NCBI GenBank assembly: GCA_023426125.1
Contig: JAFABI010000029.1
Span: 5,701-69,700 of the forward strand
Source: Bacillota bacterium
GTDB taxonomy: Bacteria > Bacillota > Clostridia > Acetivibrionales > DTU013
DNA: 64,000 nucleotides
Direction: 5' to 3'
Within the stretch, counting starts at the first letter, position 1, and every line of letters starts with the position of its first letter. A program made the position numbers and the translations under genes. The notes below the pieces were generated by a model that had not been told where the DNA came from, did not search any database, and was given only the letters and a program-made list of their open reading frames with translations. Below are positions 55,942-64,000 of this stretch, one piece after another.

Positions 55942-56015
55942 GCGGGTGTAGTTCAATGGTAGAACATCAGCCTTCCAAGCTGATTGCGTGGGTCCGATTC
56001 CCATCACCCGCTCCA
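55942..56015 (+). tRNA. tRNA-Gly (anticodon UCC), CCA encoded
   Basis: Folded by hand. Acceptor GCGGGTG/CACCCGC, D arm GTTC..GAAC, anticodon stem TCAGC/GCTGA with loop CTTCCAA, and T arm GTGGG/CCCAT. Confidence 0.9.
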
Positions 56016-56048: not shown

Positions 56049-56125
56049 GTGCCCATAGCTCAGCTGGATAGAGCAACGGATTTCTAATCCGTTGGCCGGG
56101 GGTTCGAATCCCTCTGGGCACGCCA
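56049..56125 (+). tRNA. tRNA-Arg (anticodon UCU), CCA encoded
   Basis: Acceptor GTGCCCA/TGGGCAC, D arm GCTC..GAGC, anticodon stem ACGGA/TCCGT with loop TTTCTAA, and T loop GGTTCGAATCC. Confidence 0.9.
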
Positions 56126-56127
56126 GT

Positions 56128-56158
56128 AATACCAAGCCTTTCGGGGTTTGGTATTTTT
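56128..56158 (+). terminator. Rho-independent terminator after the tRNA pair
   Basis: AATACCAAGCC-tttc-GGGGTTTGGTATTTTT. Confidence 0.7.
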
Positions 56159-56249
56159 CATTGTATAGGCCAATACCGACACTTCACCGACAATTTGAAT
56201 AGACACAAAAAAGTGTCGTTTTCACCGACACTACACAAAGGAACTTCCA

Positions 56250-57509
56250 TTAATTAGCTTTGTTGTCTTCCATTTTCTCTTGATTTTTCGAAGGATACAG
56301 CTTGGACATTTTATCGACAGATGATTGATCTCCTCTTCTAAACTTATGGCCATATCTTCGCATTAGCATTGTTGTGTCGGCATGCCCCAAGCGCTCAGCA
56401 ACATTTACAAGGTTTTCGCCAGCATCTATCAAGTAGGAAGCGGAGGTATGCCGCAAACCGTGCAGGGGCAGAGGAGGCAGTTTATGTTTTTTTAAGAATT
56501 TATTGAGCCTTGCGGAATAACTATAAGTGTACATTTGTGAACCGTCCGGATCTATGAACACTAAACCGGTGTTTACCCAAATGTTTGCACATTCCGCCTT
56601 CTGGATCTTCTGCTTATGTTGTAGATCGGAAAGCATATCCATAACGGCCTCAGGAAGCCCTATGAAACGTATAGATGTCTCATTCTTCGGATACTCCTTT
56701 ATAAATGATCCTTTATGAGGCAGGTATTGGGATACTTGATTAATAAATATTGTTCCTTCTTCAAAGTCCACATTGCACCAAGGCAATCCCATTGCTTCAC
56801 CGAGTCTGCATCCAGATGCTAACAATAAATGAATAGCTGTCTTGAATTGAAAATCCTTTTCCTCTTCAAGGGCAGCTTTAAGGGATTCGATTTCATCATC
56901 TGTATAAGATATCGCTTCCTGTTTATCTGGTGAAGGCACGTCCGCGCCTAACAAGGGGTTTACTTTTATGTTACCTTTTTTCAATGCTCTGTTTATCAAT
57001 ATACTTATTACCCTGTGGCAATGGTAAACTGTGGCCTCCGTTAAAGTGTATTCTTTTGTCCGAGTAGTTCCGTCCTTCTTAGTATAGGTTTTTTTCTGGG
57101 GCTTCCTGAATTCGTTATAGGCTTCGTCTAAAATATCTGAGGTTATATCTTCCAGTTTATAATTGCCGATAGCAGGAATGATGTGGAGCTTCAATAATTC
57201 TTCATATCGATATACTGTCTTGGGCGCCAGCTTTTTGTATTCAGGGCTTTCCCTCCACTTCTCCACAAGGTTGATAAAGCTGGTATGTGTGGGTTTTTTG
57301 ACTTCGCCTTTTTTGACTTCGGATTCAAAAACTGCCAACTGCTTTTCAGCCAACTTGTCTATATCTTCGGGTGTGGCGTCTTTTTTGTGCTTGATCACGA
57401 CTGTCTTATAAAACTTCCGGCGCTTCCCTTTGCCGTCAAAGCCATGGGAAACCTCAAATTGGTATTTATCTATTGTCCCTGGAATCAGTTTCTTGTAGCC
57501 GCCTGCCAT
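56250..57509 (-). CDS. Tyrosine site-specific integrase (phage integrase family)
   Basis: C-terminal catalytic residues in ASGCRLGEAMGL (Arg), HGLRHTSASY (His-x-x-Arg) and LGHADTTMLMRRYGH (His..Tyr). N-terminal SAM-like arm/core-binding region. Confidence 0.9.
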   Translation of the reverse strand: MAGGYKKLIPGTIDKYQFEVSHGFDGKGKRRKFYKTVVIKHKKDATPEDIDKLAEKQLAVFESEVKKGEVKKPTHTSFINLVEKWRESPEYKKLAPKTVYRYEELLKLHIIPAIGNYKLEDITSDILDEAYNEFRKPQKKTYTKKDGTTRTKEYTLTEATVYHCHRVISILINRALKKGNIKVNPLLGADVPSPDKQEAISYTDDEIESLKAALEEEKDFQFKTAIHLLLASGCRLGEAMGLPWCNVDFEEGTIFINQVSQYLPHKGSFIKEYPKNETSIRFIGLPEAVMDMLSDLQHKQKIQKAECANIWVNTGLVFIDPDGSQMYTYSYSARLNKFLKKHKLPPLPLHGLRHTSASYLIDAGENLVNVAERLGHADTTMLMRRYGHKFRRGDQSSVDKMSKLYPSKNQEKMEDNKAN

Positions 57510-57525
57510 TATTATTCACTCCTTC

Positions 57526-58494
57526 TCATTTATTCCTTTTAATAGATTCTAGCCAGTTAATATATTCTTCTTCGCTTTTAACACCGTTTTTTATGTCTGA
57601 TTTCCATTGTTTTGAATGGGTTTTAAAACTTTCAAAGTCATTTTTATACTGTATGATATCTGGATTTCTCCTTAGTAACATTTGTTTTTGCATATAGATA
57701 GCTCGATACAAACCAGAAGCTTCATCGTTTTTTAGTTTCTTTCTATATGCATATAATGCTCCAGCTTCCTTGCAGGTCTTAGAAGTATCTTGAGGGCTTG
57801 TTCTATCACAATAAATTGCATCCACTCTGTTGAAAGGTATAAAGTAATTTCCACAATTATCGCACTTTTTTATTATGTACCCTTCATTAAAAATGCATTG
57901 TAATGAAGCCATGCATAACTCAAGTAAATTACTATAATCGCTCGAATAAAAGAAGGCTGAATTTTCCCTGTTTTTTTCATAGGTATTAAATAAATCCTTA
58001 ATATTATCTTCGCTTTTAGTTTTGAAGGAATTACCCTTTTGCGCATTAAACCCTATTGACTGTGCCAATGGCTTTACTTCTATAAGTTCATACGATGACA
58101 AAACAATTAGGTATTCTATTGAGCAATATTTAGAATTCTTTGAACAAAGATCAAGGAAATACTTAATAGACCAAAGGCTATTATAGTTGAGATCGGTAAT
58201 TAGTGCTGTTGAATATTCATTATAAAGAAAACTTTTATAAAATTCGGCATCTTCATAATATTTATTGCCAATTTCTTCAACCGAATTCTTTTTAAGATTT
58301 CTTTTGTAATCCCCCATAATATCCAGCGTTTCCATTATTTTGAATAGTGTATAGCCTAAAGGATATTCCTTTTCAATAGTAGTTGTTTCATGGCTTTTAT
58401 AACGAATTATAGAATAATAGTAATATTCGATGTTTGAATTCTTTGTATGGTTGTATGTTTTAGATTCAATAATTTTTTTGGCGTTATCCATCAA
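57526..58494 (-). CDS. AT-rich orphan protein (322 aa) with a C-terminal Cys-cluster/zinc-ribbon-like helical domain; possibly the family catalogued as DUF6076
   Basis: CDNCGNYFIPFNRVDAIYCDR..TSKTCKEAG followed by a basic helical tail. The Asn/Tyr/Lys-rich N-terminal ~200 aa has no motif. It lies 16 nt upstream of int on the same strand. Confidence 0.6.
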   Translation of the reverse strand: MMDNAKKIIESKTYNHTKNSNIEYYYYSIIRYKSHETTTIEKEYPLGYTLFKIMETLDIMGDYKRNLKKNSVEEIGNKYYEDAEFYKSFLYNEYSTALITDLNYNSLWSIKYFLDLCSKNSKYCSIEYLIVLSSYELIEVKPLAQSIGFNAQKGNSFKTKSEDNIKDLFNTYEKNRENSAFFYSSDYSNLLELCMASLQCIFNEGYIIKKCDNCGNYFIPFNRVDAIYCDRTSPQDTSKTCKEAGALYAYRKKLKNDEASGLYRAIYMQKQMLLRRNPDIIQYKNDFESFKTHSKQWKSDIKNGVKSEEEYINWLESIKRNK

Positions 58495-58506
58495 TGCACC
58501 TCGGTG

Positions 58507-58587
58507 TTATCAATTGATAAAATAATTAATAATGATCTACATGTTATCAATAAAATAGAAATGATATTGCGTGATAACATGTTATCA
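58507..58587. promoter_or_regulatory. Divergent control region with TTATCA/TGATAA palindromic operator candidates
   Basis: Perfect 14-bp palindrome TTATCAATTGATAA (58507-58520), a half-site ACATGTTATCA (58539-58549), and a perfect 16-bp palindrome TGATAACATGTTATCA (58572-58587). Confidence 0.5.
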
Positions 58588-58646
58588 TTTATAATTTTAT
58601 TATAGTCATTATTAACATTAAAATCAATAGAGGGGAGGAAATTATT

Positions 58647-58841
58647 TTGAGGAATCAAGAGACACGGATAGAAATTAAGGAGAGCGGCATACGTTACTGG
58701 ATGATAGCGGAAAAACTAGGTATCTCCGATGTAACATTTAGCCGCAGGTTGAGAAAAGAGCTTCCTACCGTTGAAAAGTTAAAGATAAGGCAGGTAATAT
58801 CTGAAATCAAGGAGGCTTCAAAGCATGCCACAGTTGTTTGA
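58647..58841 (+). CDS. Small helix-turn-helix DNA-binding protein (Cro/Str-like position)
   Basis: 64 aa. IRYWMIAEKLGISDVTFSRRLRK looks like an HTH. TTG start 8 nt after a GGGGAGG RBS. Confidence 0.55.
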   Translation: MRNQETRIEIKESGIRYWMIAEKLGISDVTFSRRLRKELPTVEKLKIRQVISEIKEASKHATVV

Positions 58842-59049
58842 CAAAAAAGAGCTCATAGAATACATGGGCGGCAAACTAACAAATGACACAGCTGGCAGAT
58901 TAACCCGAGAAGGTAAAATTCCAGTAGTGAAATTTCCAGGAATCCGCCGGTACTTCTATGAGAAGGAAGCAATAGACAGGTGGCTAGAAGGTCTTCAGCA
59001 TGGCACACAGGATAAAACACTACGACTTGCAAAGTTAGGGGAAAAATGA
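58825..59049 (+). CDS. Excisionase-type (MerR-superfamily) HTH protein
   Basis: ELIEYMG..TAGRLTREGKIPVVKFPGIRRYFYEKEAIDRWL matches the Xis/AlpA-like HTH_17 pattern. Overlaps both neighbouring genes. Confidence 0.65.
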   Translation: MPQLFDKKELIEYMGGKLTNDTAGRLTREGKIPVVKFPGIRRYFYEKEAIDRWLEGLQHGTQDKTLRLAKLGEK

Positions 59050-59603
59050 GGACAGAGGAAGCAAAGGAACTTTTAAAAAATTCCATAGAAATGAAGGACG
59101 TTCTTCTGGCACTGAATATAAACCTTCAGGGCCGTGGGAATAAAATAAGATGCTTTGTACATAACGACAACCACCCTTCTATGAAAATATTCCGTAACCG
59201 GGTATGCTGCTTTAGCTGCCAGTACAACGAGGATATATTCGGTGTCACGGCAAAGTTCCTGAACCTATCTTTTCCTGATTCTGTAAAATGGCTGGCTTCA
59301 AACTTTATGCCAGGCTTGCAGCTTGACAGCCATGTTGACCATGAAGCCATAAAGCAGGCAAAGCTTCAAAGGGCCATAGCGGAAGGGCTGCAAATATGGC
59401 GCAATAATGCATATGACCGGCTTTGCACTCTATACAGGGCAACGCAGGAAGCAAAAAGGAAATTAAGTCCTGGATCCGTGGGGTATTTTGTAGCCTGCCA
59501 GTTTGAAGGGCCACTTGACTATTTGACAGACATTTTGATCTATGGAAAAGAATCAGATTGGCTTCAGGTTTACCGACAGCTGGGGGAGGCGTGGGGCTTA
59601 TGA
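59046..59603 (+). CDS. CHC2 (DnaG-type) zinc-finger protein
   Basis: KIRCFVHNDNHPSMKIFRNRVCCFSCQYNEDIFG is a CHC2 zinc-finger motif. ATGA overlap with the next gene. Confidence 0.75.
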   Translation: MRTEEAKELLKNSIEMKDVLLALNINLQGRGNKIRCFVHNDNHPSMKIFRNRVCCFSCQYNEDIFGVTAKFLNLSFPDSVKWLASNFMPGLQLDSHVDHEAIKQAKLQRAIAEGLQIWRNNAYDRLCTLYRATQEAKRKLSPGSVGYFVACQFEGPLDYLTDILIYGKESDWLQVYRQLGEAWGL

Positions 59604-61066
59604 GTAAGGTATATGAAGCATTGACAGATGCTGAAATGGAAAGTTTTGCAGAGATCGGGGAGCGCCAATTGGCTCCGCCTACGAAGCAATTCAAATTATC
59701 CGAACTTGGCAACGCCGAAAGACTTGTTGCAAGACATGGTAACGATATTCGATATTGTCACACTTGGAATAAATGGTTGGTATGGACGGGGATACATTGG
59801 AAAATTGACGATACCGGAGAAGTTGAGCGCAGGGCAAAGGATACGGTTAGGAGTATGTACGCAGAAGCTGCACAGATAGCAGACGAAGATCATAGGGCTG
59901 CACTTGCCAAACATGCAGCGAGAAGCGAAAGCAATAGGGCTATTGCTGCAATGATTGAGCTTGCAAAGTCTGAACCCGGTATTCCGGTAACTTCGGATAC
60001 GATGGATTCTGACGTATGGCTATTAAATTGCAAAAATGGAACCCTGGATCTGAGAACCGGAAAACTGAAAACACATGATAGAAAAGACTTCATAACGAAA
60101 CTTATATCAGTTGAATATGATCCCATAGCTGATTGCGTGGAATGGATGCAGTTCCTTAATAGGATTATGGACGGTAAGCAGGATTTGATTACGTTCCTGC
60201 AGAGGGCCATAGGTTACTCCTTAACAGGCAGTACCAGAGAACAGTGTCTATTTATTTTGTATGGAAACGGTGCGAACGGTAAGTCAGTATTGGTTAATGC
60301 TATTAGCAATTTGCTTTGTGAATATGCTCAGCAAACGCCAACTGATACATTAATGGCAAAGGATACAAGTGGTATAAGTAACGATATTGCCCGATTGAAA
60401 GGTAGTCGGTTTGTTGTGGCTTCTGAGGTTGAGGAAGGAAAGCGCATGGCTGAAAGCCTTATAAAATCTATGACAGGTGGCGAAAAGTTGACGGCACGAT
60501 TTATGAGAGCGGAATACTTTGAGTTTGATCCGACTTTTAAGTTGTGGATTTCAAGTAATCACAAGCCTGTAATAAAAGGGACCGATACGGGGATCTGGAG
60601 AAGGATTAAATTGATACCATTCACAGTGACTATACCGCCAGAGGAAAGAGATAAAAGCTTATCAGAAAAGCTAAGAGCTAAATTACCCGGTATACTTGCC
60701 TGGGCTGTAGAAGGCTGCCAGGAATGGCTTAGAGGTGGACTTGGGGAACCGGAAGAGGTAAAGGCTGCAACGGACGGTTACAAAAATGAGATGGATGTTA
60801 TATCAAGGTTTATATCTGATTGCTGCACAGTAAATACAAGCCAAACAACCAGATCACAGAAGCTTTATAAGACATATGTGGATTGGTGTAAGCAAAACGG
60901 TGAATATGAATTATCTCAGACAAAATTTAGCCTCAGGTTAGTTGAGAAGGGATTTACAAAGGAATCCACAAGGGCATGTGTCATGTGGCACAATATTGCA
61001 ATATTAGAGGAATCCGAGGAAGATGACAACCCGTTTATCAATAAAAAGTGTGGAGGGTTGGGGTAG
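59600..61066 (+). CDS. Phage/plasmid primase-helicase, P4/D5 family (D5_N plus SF3-type NTPase)
   Basis: Walker A ILYGNGANGKS and Walker B-like RFVVASEVEEG. Also IKSMTGGEKLTARFMRAEYFEF, FKLWISSNHKP and RRIKLIPF, typical of P4-family primase C-terminal domains. Confidence 0.85.
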   Translation: MSKVYEALTDAEMESFAEIGERQLAPPTKQFKLSELGNAERLVARHGNDIRYCHTWNKWLVWTGIHWKIDDTGEVERRAKDTVRSMYAEAAQIADEDHRAALAKHAARSESNRAIAAMIELAKSEPGIPVTSDTMDSDVWLLNCKNGTLDLRTGKLKTHDRKDFITKLISVEYDPIADCVEWMQFLNRIMDGKQDLITFLQRAIGYSLTGSTREQCLFILYGNGANGKSVLVNAISNLLCEYAQQTPTDTLMAKDTSGISNDIARLKGSRFVVASEVEEGKRMAESLIKSMTGGEKLTARFMRAEYFEFDPTFKLWISSNHKPVIKGTDTGIWRRIKLIPFTVTIPPEERDKSLSEKLRAKLPGILAWAVEGCQEWLRGGLGEPEEVKAATDGYKNEMDVISRFISDCCTVNTSQTTRSQKLYKTYVDWCKQNGEYELSQTKFSLRLVEKGFTKESTRACVMWHNIAILEESEEDDNPFINKKCGGLG

Positions 61067-61174
61067 TGTGGAGGGTTGCGGATACTTTTCCGGTATAAGC
61101 TCTTATGTATTTATATTTTAAGTTTATATGGAAAAAGCCTCCACAACCCTCCACAATATATAAACCCTCCACAG
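61047..61174. repeat. Putative replication origin: iterons flanking an AT-rich core
   Basis: AGTGTGGAGGGTTG occurs twice in direct orientation (61047-61060 and 61065-61078). Next comes an AT-rich stretch (TTATGTATTTATATTTTAAGTTTATATGG). Then come inverted copies CAACCCTCCACA (61144-61155) and AAACCCTCCACA (61162-61173), plus a partial CCTCCACA at 61138. Confidence 0.65.
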
Positions 61175-61199
61175 AATCAGAACGAAAAGAGGTATCGAT

Positions 61200-61391
61200 A
61201 TGGACAAAGAAATAATCATCCAGGCTTCAAGGTGTACGATTGTGCTTTACGAGAAGGAATTATTCCAGTTGCTGGCAACGCGACCGGATTTGTTTGAAAA
61301 GGCAATCGGCAGAGGCAAAGGCTATAGACGGGCGCAGGCCTGTGAAAATAGACAAAATAAAAAGGGGAAGGAGGTTGATTTTAATGTTTAG
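61200..61391 (+). CDS. Island orphan ORF (63 aa)
   Basis: ATG preceded by AAGAGG. Overlaps the next ORF by 8 nt. No motif. Confidence 0.4.
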   Translation: MDKEIIIQASRCTIVLYEKELFQLLATRPDLFEKAIGRGKGYRRAQACENRQNKKGKEVDFNV

Positions 61392-61698
61392 TAAAAGCGG
61401 CGCGGTTCATTGCCAGTATTGTATGGCTCCTGTGGAGATTTGGAAACATTCCATGACCACATATGCCGGGGACGAATGTAAACTGTATTCCGATTTCTCG
61501 GATGTAGTATGGGAACTTGAAAATACCGGAAAACCATTTAATGATCAGGACATATTGGAAGCTTGCAGGAAAGGTTTTGAGCATGAATATACCGACATAA
61601 AGGACTTCGAGGCATGTATCAATGAAATGATCGGTATCCATGTTGAATGCGGGGTTTTTTCGAGGGATTACAGACCACTGTCCATAGAAAAAAAATGA
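61384..61698 (+). CDS. Island orphan ORF (104 aa) with an N-terminal CxxC
   Basis: ATG at 61384 follows a GGAAGGAGG RBS. CQYC motif. Acidic C-terminal half. Confidence 0.45.
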   Translation: MFSKSGAVHCQYCMAPVEIWKHSMTTYAGDECKLYSDFSDVVWELENTGKPFNDQDILEACRKGFEHEYTDIKDFEACINEMIGIHVECGVFSRDYRPLSIEKK

Positions 61699-61713
61699 GG
61701 GGGATAAGACAAA

Positions 61714-62097
61714 ATGAGGTTTGAATTAACAAAATGGAACAAGGATAAGGCAGCAAAGGCGCTGGGTGACCTTTCCGGCAAAAGTATTATGATCAGCGAT
61801 ATGCATCTATCGGGGGTTGAATCCATCGAGTTTGAAGATGATGTTTTTTACGATGATGATCCCATCCCGGAAGAAAACTATGATGGCGGGAGATTGGAAT
61901 ATATCAGAATAATCTTCAACATCGGTAACGGCAGGGTGTATCGGCACTTTTGCCCTGACAGGGAAATATGTCACTTCTGGCATGAGACGGATGATCTGAT
62001 ATGCTTCAGGATTGAAAAAATACCTGAGTATGTCCAGCGGGAAAAGGATGCGCTTGATTTTAAGCTGCAGGAGTATGAAAAATTCATGAGCATATAG
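61714..62097 (+). CDS. Island orphan ORF (127 aa)
   Basis: GGGGGA RBS and an acidic protein. No motif. Confidence 0.45.
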   Translation: MRFELTKWNKDKAAKALGDLSGKSIMISDMHLSGVESIEFEDDVFYDDDPIPEENYDGGRLEYIRIIFNIGNGRVYRHFCPDREICHFWHETDDLICFRIEKIPEYVQREKDALDFKLQEYEKFMSI

Positions 62098-62116
62098 AAA
62101 GCGAGGATGATGTGAA

Positions 62117-62458
62117 ATGGATAAGCAAGCGTTTACCATCAAGAATTTAAATGTTAATACGATTTCAGGGCGTATTTCAGGATCGGTATGGAAAAGGAAA
62201 TTATATAAACACGGTGGCGCATTTAATGAATTATGCGGCTGTGGTTATGATGGTGAAGCAGCAAAAAAGATCAAGGATTTGTTACCGGGTGACAAGATTC
62301 TGGCTACAGATTATAAGTCTGAAACGATTACAACCGACAACGGAAGCTATGAAAGGGTTATCATATATGACTTTGAAATAGTCCATCAAAGAGGAAAGCG
62401 AGGTGAGGAAAATGGGAATTATGAGTGCCGAAAATCGGCGCCAGACACAAAGGCCTAA
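62117..62458 (+). CDS. Island orphan ORF (113 aa)
   Basis: GAGGATGATG RBS region. The N-terminal NVNTISGRISG..W.R pattern is faintly OB-fold/SSB-like, which is speculative. Confidence 0.4.
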   Translation: MDKQAFTIKNLNVNTISGRISGSVWKRKLYKHGGAFNELCGCGYDGEAAKKIKDLLPGDKILATDYKSETITTDNGSYERVIIYDFEIVHQRGKRGEENGNYECRKSAPDTKA

Positions 62459-62669
62459 AGTCGAGAGGCTTCGATCGCTTACAAAGGAGGCCAAACAGCT
62501 AAGGGCTAAAGGCCAATATTTGAATGCAGACAAATTGGAGCCTGAGATTAGAAGCTTAAAAAAGGATTTGGGAATAAAAACCGAGCCCAAGAAATCGACT
62601 ACAAGAGCAGGTAATGTAGGGGAGTTCAAAAAGGAATTATTGAAGAGATTGGAGAGGTGCAAAAAATGA
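62412..62669 (+). CDS. Island orphan ORF (85 aa, very basic, coiled-coil-like)
   Basis: ATG after GAGGTGAGG. Overlaps the upstream ORF end. ATGA coupling to the next ORF. Confidence 0.35.
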   Translation: MGIMSAENRRQTQRPKVERLRSLTKEAKQLRAKGQYLNADKLEPEIRSLKKDLGIKTEPKKSTTRAGNVGEFKKELLKRLERCKK

Positions 62670-63337
62670 AATTAATATTCAAAGCCGAAGAGAAGGAAAA
62701 AGTAGCAAGAGAGGAACAAGCTAAAAGGGAAAGCGCAAGAAAGGCATGGTTCAAGCACCAGGAGGAACTGAACAAACCCAAGGAATTCTATATTCCCGGA
62801 GGCGCATGGGCTTCATTTCTGGATGTCTTGAACAATGGGGAAATAACGCGCATATACCAGAGTGATATTCCCGGAGGCGCATGGTTTATACATGAACAGG
62901 TGAAGGCGGCCAATATATTCCTAAAACTGGTGATAAGGGATAGGGGCGCTTTAGAGAATCTGATTGTTGACGAGTTTGAATGGAGTCCTAACAACATTCC
63001 TTTATCCCTTCCGGATGCTGATACAGAAGCAGTATTGAAGAAGGAAGCCGGCAAACTGGGACTTGACTATGAAACATATCTGAGAGCAATATTCCACACC
63101 CGGGTTACTGAGCTTGAACAGGACATGCGACAAAGGGAAGAGAGGCGGCAGGCAGACGCGTGGGATAATCGATCAGAAAAAATTACAGGATATCTCAAAG
63201 CAGATTTAAGAAAAAAGCTTGAGGCTAAGTACGGTCAAGCTGTGTATGATAACTGGTTCGCTCCAGGCCGAAAAATCTTTACGCATTTTGATATGCTTAT
63301 AAAGGCAGCTGAAGAGTATCTTGGCAAGAGGGAATGA
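62666..63337 (+). CDS. Island orphan ORF (223 aa) with a duplicated IPGGAW motif
   Basis: ATG at 62666 follows GGAGAGGTG. Charged helical N- and C-termini flank a region containing two copies of IPGGAW. Confidence 0.5.
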   Translation: MKLIFKAEEKEKVAREEQAKRESARKAWFKHQEELNKPKEFYIPGGAWASFLDVLNNGEITRIYQSDIPGGAWFIHEQVKAANIFLKLVIRDRGALENLIVDEFEWSPNNIPLSLPDADTEAVLKKEAGKLGLDYETYLRAIFHTRVTELEQDMRQREERRQADAWDNRSEKITGYLKADLRKKLEAKYGQAVYDNWFAPGRKIFTHFDMLIKAAEEYLGKRE

Positions 63338-63478
63338 ATTATGTGGGCGAAACATATTAGGGTCTGCAAGACAAAAAATGCAGTGCGGGGAAGTCGGAAG
63401 TCCGAGAAGAACAATATGCTGCGGGATAAAAAGCAACCCCCCCACCCTTCGAAAATTAATTTTAAATAGCTAAGGACC

Positions 63479-63512
63479 GGAGGGGGCAGCCTTTTCCCCC
63501 TCCACCGTTTTT
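63479..63512 (+). terminator. GC hairpin plus T-run upstream of terS
   Basis: GGAGGGGG-cagcctttt-CCCCCTCC followed by ACCGTTTTT. Preceded by a C7 tract (AACCCCCCCACCC). Confidence 0.5.
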
Positions 63513-63534
63513 CTAAAAAAGGGGGTGTTAGAAC

Positions 63535-63906
63535 TTGTCAAAATCAAAAAAAGCTATTGAAAATGAAGTGAAAAAGCAGATGCAGCGGCTTGGAACATAT
63601 AAGCCGGAGTATGATAAGATACTGAAAATTTTTGCAGGAATGCTTTATCAGTACCACAGGCTGGAAGAGCAGTTCGAGGAAAGCGGCTGCAAGCTGACGG
63701 AGTCATACACAAACAAGGCCGGCGCCACAAACGAGAGGAAGGTTCCTCTGTATACGGCCATGGAAAGCTTAAGAAAAGACATAGCCGTTTACTCAGACAA
63801 ACTTTGTTTGAACCCGAAGTCACTTGAGACGGTGACTACTGATCTTCCGAAAAAATCTTCTTTGGTAAAAGCTCTTGAGGAGATTTCCTCTGAATTAGGA
63901 ATGTAA
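63535..63906 (+). CDS. terS: Small terminase subunit, P27 family
   Basis: KPEYDKILKIFAGMLYQYHRLEEQFEESG...NKAGATNERKVPLYTAMESLRKDIAVYSDKLCLNPKS matches the P27-family TerS pattern. TTG start after an AGGGGG RBS. Confidence 0.75.
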   Translation: MSKSKKAIENEVKKQMQRLGTYKPEYDKILKIFAGMLYQYHRLEEQFEESGCKLTESYTNKAGATNERKVPLYTAMESLRKDIAVYSDKLCLNPKSLETVTTDLPKKSSLVKALEEISSELGM

Positions 63907-64000
63907 CTCTTGCCCTGGGTGCGGGGTTTGGAGCACACCCAACCTGTTTCCGGTCAGTGAATGAAAAACCGGGCTTCAAGGTTTTCGAGCATAGGACGTA

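Follow-up and report, generated by a model that had tools for sequence, protein, structure and literature searches.

What kind of element is integrated at the tRNA-Arg(UCU) gene near the right end of this 64,000-nucleotide stretch of Bacillota DNA (contig JAFABI010000029.1, positions 5,701 to 69,700; hereafter the window)? The first-pass annotation, made from the sequence of the window, proposed either a phage satellite resembling the phage-inducible chromosomal islands (PICIs) of Gram-positive bacteria or an unusually compact prophage. Our analysis delimited a 14,480-bp integrative island at this tRNA gene, and the island probably works as a PICI-type phage satellite. This reading is supported by contig identity, the attachment (att) sites, the gene inventory, a terminated operon, an intact small terminase gene (terS), a cos-like region upstream of it, independent compact islands elsewhere, a sister island, and published PICI criteria.

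The window ends in the middle of the element. It was extended by means of a public contig, L001 (ENA ERZ27268955; 80,122 bp), which was reached by look-up of the terS protein. The two sequences are identical over an overlap of 10,466 bases, and L001 runs for another 16 kb; window coordinates are obtained by adding 53,534 to L001 coordinates. The first-pass annotation had suggested a search downstream for a direct repeat of the tRNA-Arg 3′ end, and this repeat was found. The 3′ 49 nt of the tRNA gene, which form the core of the left attachment site (attL), recur at L001 17023-17071 with 48 of 49 positions identical (98%), and this right site (attR) lies 6.7 kb past terS. A third copy is present at L001 19919-19967 (45/49, 92%). 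The three copies are in register, and their similarity stops precisely at the CCA-proximal end of the tRNA. From attL to attR, the island extends from window position 56126 to window-equivalent 70605 (L001 2592-17071). PICIs are att-delimited elements of about 12-15 kb (PMC6092414), and the 14,480 bp between the 49-nt direct repeats of the island agree with this size. Upstream, the housekeeping genes (argH, argG, ruvCAB, queH, an AMIN-amidase gene, a gerM-like gene, and genes for RNase PH, Ham1 and a metallophosphoesterase) stop at the tRNA-Gly/tRNA-Arg pair and its terminator, as had been claimed. An Rfam scan of the 20-kb locus revealed tRNAs only, plus matches at chance level.

The open reading frames (ORFs) between attL and attR were scanned with Pfam, PHROGs and PADLOC. 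No terL, portal, capsid, tail, holin or endolysin gene was revealed, in agreement with the absence of structural genes from PICIs (PMC6092414). After terS there are only accessory genes, which encode a DUF3467 protein, a 58-aa protein, a PIN-like protein, an Mrr-like enzyme, two HTH_17 proteins, and two small ORFs. The Mrr-like enzyme, a 581-aa Mrr_cat protein, was assigned by PADLOC to the type IV methyl-directed restriction enzymes (mREase_IV, 4e-62). We also searched the 20-kb locus by tblastn with the TerL, portal, protease, capsid, and head-tail/head-completion proteins of the phages having the closest terS; nothing was found, not even a remnant. The downstream inventory that the first-pass annotation had called for thus consists of accessory and defence-type genes, and together with attR it supports the PICI-like reading in silico.

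The gene order from the integrase gene (int) to terS was as the first-pass annotation had described, with each listed feature in its place. The leftward int and DUF6076 genes face a rightward series (small helix-turn-helix [HTH] gene of 64 codons, xis-like gene, CHC2 gene, helicase gene) across a palindrome-rich region of 150 bp, which is the layout of PICIs (PMC6092414). Two perfect palindromes, TTATCAATTGATAA (58507-58520) and TGATAACATGTTATCA (58571-58586), are built on the half-site TGATAA/TTATCA. The half-site TGTTATCA recurs about every 37 nt, and promoter-like hexamers are present on both strands.

The replication module of the rightward operon was described correctly in part. The CHC2 protein has a DnaG-type zinc ribbon only, without a Toprim domain. 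The next gene had been called a P4/D5 primase-helicase. Its helicase and origin-binding part stands, being that of a superfamily 3 (SF3) protein with a TIGR01613 score of 348 bits; the primase part does not, as no primase catalytic domain is recognizable, and the Prim-Pol or similar domains of longer relatives are absent. The proposed iteron origin was borne out. The 11-nt iteron TGTGGAGGGTT has five copies in 125 bp and none in the rest of the window; the chance expectation is 0.78, and none of 100 shuffled sequences reached five copies. This candidate origin adjoins the 3′ end of the helicase gene, in agreement with the origin expected of a PICI (PMC6092414).

The assignment of terS to the P27 family also held. 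The gene is intact and is the last of the rightward operon; a small terminase is one of the components by which SatelliteFinder recognizes satellites (PMC10085698). The protein is full-length, with 51 invariant columns across nine sequences, and divergence is confined to the last ~20 residues. Its nearest relatives (72-76% identity) are found in HNH-terS-terL-portal-protease-capsid-tail arrays of HK97-like phages, in which terS overlaps the start of terL. In the island, a terminator with a 9-bp stem (7 GC pairs) and a T-run follows 100 nt after the terS stop codon (L001 10471-10493; window-equivalent 64005-64027).

The 110 nt 5′ of terS aligned with the HNH-terS junction of the related phages, with z = 7.6 (phage locus L008) and 6.4 (L010) against shuffles; the value for phage versus phage was 8.7. 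The common features are a run of six or seven C at the very end of the HNH gene, the pattern GGA(A/C)CGG...GGGG...TTTCC, and then a ribosome-binding site. In staphylococcal HNH/cos phages, cos lies at the position of the HNH-terS junction (supported in part by PMC5052747). Because the upstream 110 nt are homologous to this junction, the island appears, by sequence comparison, to have captured terS together with the adjoining packaging-recognition DNA, without HNH or terL. A 42-aa ORF upstream of terS (63341-63469) was considered as a possible HNH remnant and rejected; it gave no convincing alignment with HNH proteins, and the similarity to the phages is limited to the C-run and the DNA that follows.

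Table 1. Features at the tRNA-Arg(UCU) locus, in window coordinates.
Feature	Position	Strand	Evidence
tRNA-Gly	55942-56015		tRNA call
tRNA-Arg(UCU)	56049-56125	+	ARAGORN
attL core (3′ 49 nt of tRNA-Arg(UCU))	56077-56125	+	recurs downstream in L001
Terminator-like hairpin at the end of the tRNA operon and the start of the island	56128-56155 (L001 2594-2621)	+	12-bp stem, then T-run
Tyrosine integrase, 419 aa	56250-57509	-	Phage_integrase 9e-22; Phage_int_SAM_3 1.6e-10; phrog_1 6e-63
DUF6076 protein, 321-322 aa, 29.6% GC, C-terminal Cys4 zinc ribbon	57526-58494	-	Pfam DUF6076 6e-15
Divergent control region, 150 bp, operator-like palindromes	58495-58646	.	palindromes, repeats, promoter-like hexamers
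Small HTH protein, 64 aa, first gene of rightward operon	58647-58841	+	phrog_17740 5.5e-10; weak HTH_10; weak repressor phrog_4583
HTH_17/excisionase-like protein, 74 aa	58825-59049	+	HTH_17 2.4e-6; phrog_66 2.5e-5; TIGR01764 1e-4
CHC2 zinc-finger protein, 185 aa	59046-59603	+	Zn_ribbon_DnaG 1.2e-7; phrog_11992 5.7e-20
SF3 (P4/D5-type) helicase/replication initiator, 488 aa	59600-61066	+	D5_N 6e-42; DUF5906; Pox_D5; TIGR01613 348 bits
Candidate replication origin: 2 forward and 3 inverted TGTGGAGGGTT around an AT-rich spacer of ~57 nt	61049-61173	.	repeat count, shuffles
o63	61200-61391	+	weak tblastn matches, same position in L013-L017 and L022/L023; no family match
o104	61384-61698	+	77% to remnant-island paralogue (L001 18858-19154); 65% to L022
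o127	61714-62097	+	67% to gene after o104 homologue in L022/L023; no family match
o113	62117-62458	+	no relatives found
o85	62412-62669	+	42-61% to gene preceding o223 homologues in L024-L027
o223	62666-63337	+	small family: 26 representatives among 1.84 billion proteins
Cos-like region: C7 run, then GGACCGGAGGGGG...TTTCC	63425-63534	.	alignment with HNH-terS junction of related phages
terS, P27/Terminase_4 family, 123 aa	63535-63906	+	Terminase_4 8.5e-14; phrog_361 2.6e-37

The first-pass annotation had found no cI-type repressor, and this observation was upheld. The DUF6076 gene, which has the same orientation as int, occupies the position of the PICI master repressor (Stl/Rpr), and its product is not Stl/cI-like. 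The gene had been described as an AT-rich orphan. Its low GC content (29.6%) was confirmed; it is not an orphan, as shown by the Pfam match and the C-terminal zinc ribbon. GC content is 29-31% over the gene and the control region (57526-58494 and 58250-58750), ~43% in the block from replication genes to terS, and 47.5% in the host part of the window. The protein contains no HTH or cI-type domain and gave no PADLOC, PHROG or PDB sequence match; a literature search on DUF6076 returned no mention. A single-sequence AlphaFold2 (AF2) model was unusable (mean predicted local distance difference test score [pLDDT] 37.6). The zinc-ribbon region is common to the leftward int-adjacent genes of the island and of three related loci (L004, L013 and L022), with DUF6076 0.004 for L004, blastp 8e-4 between the island and L013, and zf-CGNR 3e-5 for L022. 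Because this region is shared by all four, the sequences argue that the leftward position next to int has a conserved role and does not hold random cargo. The DUF6076 protein is a candidate regulator; because of its 29.6% GC, it is possibly cargo.

Six tightly spaced ORFs (61200-63337) lie between the origin and terS. Five were scanned in Pfam and PHROG, and o85 in Pfam only; these scans gave no family match. The first-pass annotation had called them six coupled orphans. Their coupling and the lack of Pfam/PHROG matches stood; orphan status did not, as o104/o127 and o85/o223 have relatives in other islands. o63 is kept after the replication module in several islands and shows ~30% identity to the L022 copy. 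An o85 homologue precedes an o223 homologue wherever context was available, and in L024 and L027 o223 is immediately followed by HNH or terS. In the search for o223 loci, an alignment of 20 sequences was too divergent for a pattern scan, and one of six sequences gave a single metagenome locus, L024.

The AF2 model of o223, based on the family alignment, had a pLDDT of 88.5 and consisted of repeated strand-helix-helix (beta-alpha-alpha) units. The best fold matches in PDB and BFVD were tandem ribbon-helix-helix DNA-binding proteins (TraY of the F relaxosome, and AvtR). The likeness is a hint only, because the E-values are weak (0.04-0.1). On this model, o223 is a candidate DNA-binding accessory of the packaging module. 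The o223 gene also contains a perfect 20-nt direct repeat, ATATTCCCGGAGGCGCATGG, at 62790-62809 and 62865-62884 (75 nt apart). Both copies encode IPGGAW, and homologues of the o223 family keep only the second IPGGAW motif. For the first copy, a role as a DNA site is conceivable, e.g. as a repeat bound by the terminase or by a regulator; alternatively, it may have arisen by recent conversion.

The closest relatives of the island helicase (69-75% identity) occur overwhelmingly on contigs of 12.5-16 kb; they belong to other tRNA-integrated islands of 13 kb. Modules in common with the island were found in three islands of 13.0-14.7 kb with tRNA-end repeats (L004, L013 and L024) and in L022, which is on a truncated contig. 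L013 (97-13188) is a 13.0-kb island with perfect 45-nt tRNA-end repeats; L004 (7185-20210, in a Bacillota metagenome-assembled genome [MAG]) is a 13.0-kb island with perfect 49-nt tRNA-Thr repeats. Both encode an integrase, a leftward gene product of ~350 aa, an HTH protein, a CHC2-like protein, a helicase, a terS-like protein (phrog_24579/2538) and a conserved 601-aa protein without Pfam or PHROG match; no capsid or tail gene is recognizable in either. Their helicases are 69-71% identical to that of the island, and they share with it only helicase, xis and o63. In the contig collection, 36 index blocks contain the L013 helicase, and the L013/L004 type may be an abundant undescribed satellite-like lineage. 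A GTDB scan with the helicase revealed no identical genome and only a 69% relative in a Bacillota MAG; the corresponding IMG/VR scan gave only a 6.1-kb fragment of an L013-type element.

The other relatives share different parts. L022 has o63, o104 and o127 in common with the island, and its integrase is 88% identical over the first 148 residues, at which point the contig ends. Its replication module differs (Phage_rep_org_N plus DnaG/DnaB), and another terS-like gene stands at its end, followed by host genes. The HTH_17/excisionase-like protein is 49% identical to its L017 counterpart. L024 (3720-18458 of MCHG01000031.1) is a 14.7-kb island with 49-nt tRNA-Trp repeats; it carries int, a cI-like repressor gene, a DnaD-like replication module, a sigma-like activator gene, and o85/o223 homologues just 5′ of a stand-alone HNH endonuclease gene. 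L024 has neither terS, terL nor capsid, and it may be a satellite that supplies HNH in place of TerS. In L027 (1269-1887), the gene after o85 and o223 is a P27-type terS (36% identity), and a shorter terS-like ORF (81 aa) takes the place of terL.

We compared the island with known satellites. It resembles the pac-type staphylococcal pathogenicity islands (SaPIs) that have their own TerS (SaPI1, SaPIbov1) in having int at one end, a leftward gene between int and the divergent region, rightward xis, pri-like and rep genes, an iteron/AT-rich origin, small genes in a block closed by terS, accessory genes further on, and a size of about 14-15 kb without structural or lysis genes. It differs in having a DUF6076/zinc-ribbon protein in place of the Stl/cI-type HTH repressor, and a terS of the family found with HNH/cos phages, P27 (Terminase_4), rather than the pac-type SaPI TerS. 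No cpmA/cpmB, ppi or pti homologue was recognizable, although no direct comparison with SaPI proteins was made, and the host is an uncultured spore-former-like Bacillota bacterium. Cos-type PICIs (SaPIbov5, SaPIbov4 and EcCICFT073) carry a copy of the helper cos region and depend on a cos phage, which in staphylococci is of the HNH-terS-terL type; they are about 14 kb, versus 42-45 kb for the helper (PMC5052747). Characterized cos SaPIs have lost terS except for a 3′ remnant and encode the HK97-fold protein Ccm, whereas the island has an intact terS beside its cos-like region and no recognizable capsid-fold gene.

In the SatelliteFinder scheme (de Sousa et al. 2023, PMC10085698), with profile matches inferred from Pfam and PHROG hits, the island has four of the five core components of a PICI: integrase, AlpA/MerR-like HTH_17 protein, primase-replicase-type protein, and terS. 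The fifth, capsid morphogenesis, was not recognizable; the small ORFs gave no such Pfam/PHROG match (o85, Pfam only), and the o223 model is ribbon-helix-helix-like, not capsid- or scaffold-like. The forbidden tail, holin, portal and head-tail components are absent, and the island corresponds to "Type B". This kind of element is already known, as putative PICIs have been predicted computationally in Clostridium, Acetivibrio and Tissierellia (PMC10085698); our literature search found no experimentally characterized clostridial satellite. With P4-like satellites the island shares an SF3 helicase having the P4 alpha C-terminal domain (TIGR01613, 348 bits), an HTH_17/AlpA-like regulator, tRNA integration and defence cargo. 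However, the general Pfam and PHROG profiles, used in place of a separate P4-specific set, revealed none of psu, sid, delta and epsilon, no primase domain is fused to the helicase, terS is present in the island and absent from P4, and the predicted helper is a siphovirus-type HK97 phage, not a P2-like myovirus. A P4-like satellite was ruled out by the absence of psu/sid/delta and the presence of terS. A capsid-forming PICI was ruled out by the absence of terL, portal, capsid, and head-tail adaptor/connector genes, and an integrative conjugative or mobilizable element by the absence of relaxase and type IV secretion system (T4SS) family matches among the island ORFs.

By analogy with PICIs such as the SaPIs (PMC6092414, PMC5052747, PMC10085698), the operators would keep the island repressed until a helper phage protein relieves the repression. 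Int and Xis would then excise the island, the helicase would melt the origin at the iterons, and the island would replicate. TerS of the island would bind its own cos-like site and recruit the helper TerL, and probably the helper HNH nuclease as well. The island DNA would be packaged into HK97-type heads and tails made by the helper; at 14.5 kb it corresponds to about one-third of a helper genome of ~40 kb. The predicted helper is a siphophage of the HNH-terS-terL-portal-protease-capsid type. Functions in packaging and interference may be encoded by the small genes, among them the o85-o223 pair, and the restriction enzyme and PIN-like cargo would probably benefit the host as anti-phage defence.

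Several observations weigh against a working satellite. All long contigs with the flanking metallophosphoesterase gene carry the island and give no sign of mobility within the population. An empty attB was looked for by means of this gene and none was found; short Logan contigs break at the 49-nt repeat. No attP junction was found. Excision, replication, packaging and helper dependence are predictions from analogy. No Stl/cI-type repressor is recognizable in the island, the deviant GC content of the DUF6076 gene would also suit cargo, and no capsid-size-redirection gene (cpmA/B-, ccm- or Sid-like) is recognizable. Sharing with other islands is mosaic, by module, and there is no tight family. 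Scanning IMG/VR for int, the DUF6076 protein and o223 gave nothing relevant, no copy of the island was found in viral-particle or IMG/VR data, and a megablast search of INPHARED phages with the entire island as query revealed no DNA match. No known helper phage has a terS closer than 76%.

Some of these points would suit a defective remnant, i.e. a once-complete phage or once-functional satellite that lost everything after terS and became an immobile, cargo-carrying relic at tRNA-Arg. We regard this as unlikely. It is favoured by the clearly phage-derived terS and upstream region, the foreign 27% GC cassette right after terS, the ~0.95 kb without ORFs further on, the adjoining decayed sister element, and the presence of the island in all long contigs with the host flank. 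However, the genes from int to terS are all intact and tightly coupled, and the operon closes with a proper terminator and not with a truncated terL. tblastn gave no remnant of terL, portal or capsid, and the att repeats are 98% identical. In addition, there are three module-sharing tRNA-repeat islands of 13.0-14.7 kb without recognizable structural genes; because these exist, it is unlikely that decay led several times independently to one size and layout.

Another explanation is an integrative defence or cargo island that is independent of phages, with its own int, xis and helicase, which would move by transformation, conjugative mobilization or generalized transduction; the terS-like protein would then be a DNA-binding regulator. 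This is rather improbable in view of the terS itself, which is highly conserved relative to functional phage terminases and has kept its adjoining cos-like DNA, a combination not easily accounted for unless the DNA is packaged. Other islands also contain the o85-o223-terS/HNH module, and Pfam, PHROGs and NCBIfam revealed no relaxase, coupling protein, oriT-type or T4SS gene among the island ORFs. Evidence for such an island includes the defence-like cargo (mREase_IV, the PIN-like protein, and HicAB in the neighbouring remnant) and the absence of an IMG/VR copy; in addition, a published report (PMC13376191) describes one case in which natural competence moved phage satellites. Judged from the 64-kb window by itself, the terS at its right edge might also precede terL and structural genes, as in a compact ordinary temperate prophage having its morphogenesis genes further downstream. 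With 16 kb more of contig, attR 6.7 kb after terS, and no match to TerL, portal, capsid, tail, holin or endolysin, this has become extremely improbable. The first-pass annotation had specified that a 35-45 kb element with tail and lysis modules would be an ordinary prophage; because attR lies 14,480 bp downstream and structural and lysis genes are absent, that alternative is refuted. Position of attR and gene content together rule out an ordinary prophage, and a PICI-type phage satellite is the reading that we favour.

The right arm beyond the window has several further features. GC content drops from 43% in the terS operon to 27% in the next cassette (L001 10600-11918; window-equivalent 64134-65452), which encodes the DUF3467 protein, the 58-aa protein and the PIN-like protein (228 aa) and has its own promoter-like site after the terS terminator. 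The cassette gave no PADLOC match; it probably represents a toxin-antitoxin-like or defence module of recent acquisition. A stretch of ~0.95 kb with ~42% GC (L001 11950-12927; window-equivalent 65484-66461) precedes the type IV restriction gene; it contains no plus-strand ORF longer than 66 aa and has no Rfam match, and it may be an unannotated RNA or what is left of a decayed gene.

According to PMC6092414, PICI att sites are exclusive to the islands, and prophages do not use them. In the contigs of this strain, the only ones available for the locus, the tRNA-Arg att site is occupied by two related islands in tandem. The second, which is decayed and 2.9 kb long (L001 17072-19967; window-equivalent 70606-73501), is closed by the third att copy. 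Besides genes for the toxin-antitoxin pair HicA/HicB, it contains paralogues of two main-island ORFs, namely a truncated one of o104 (77% identity) and one of the last ORF (70%). A GNAT acetyltransferase gene follows it.

A bolder proposal is that the island represents an uncharacterized satellite clade in uncultured Bacillota that parasitizes HNH/cos HK97-type phages by mechanistically new packaging and regulatory modules. We consider this possible but doubtful. In such a clade, P27 TerS with its cos-like DNA, o85/o223, and the DUF6076/CGNR-like protein would constitute a new packaging-redirection module and a new induction switch.

If functional, the island would be a well-delimited satellite from an anaerobic spore-former-like Bacillota bacterium, a group without any studied satellite-helper pair. 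The analysis predicts that its helper is an HNH-terS-terL HK97-like cos phage and that the 110 nt 5′ of terS contain its packaging signal. Among its gene products, o85/o223 and the DUF6076 zinc-ribbon protein are candidate new hijacking parts. The type IV restriction enzyme and the PIN-like cargo occupy the usual accessory positions of PICIs, which bears on the spread of defence genes in such communities. The related islands of 13.0-14.7 kb suggest that metagenomes contain a sizeable unannotated pool of such elements.

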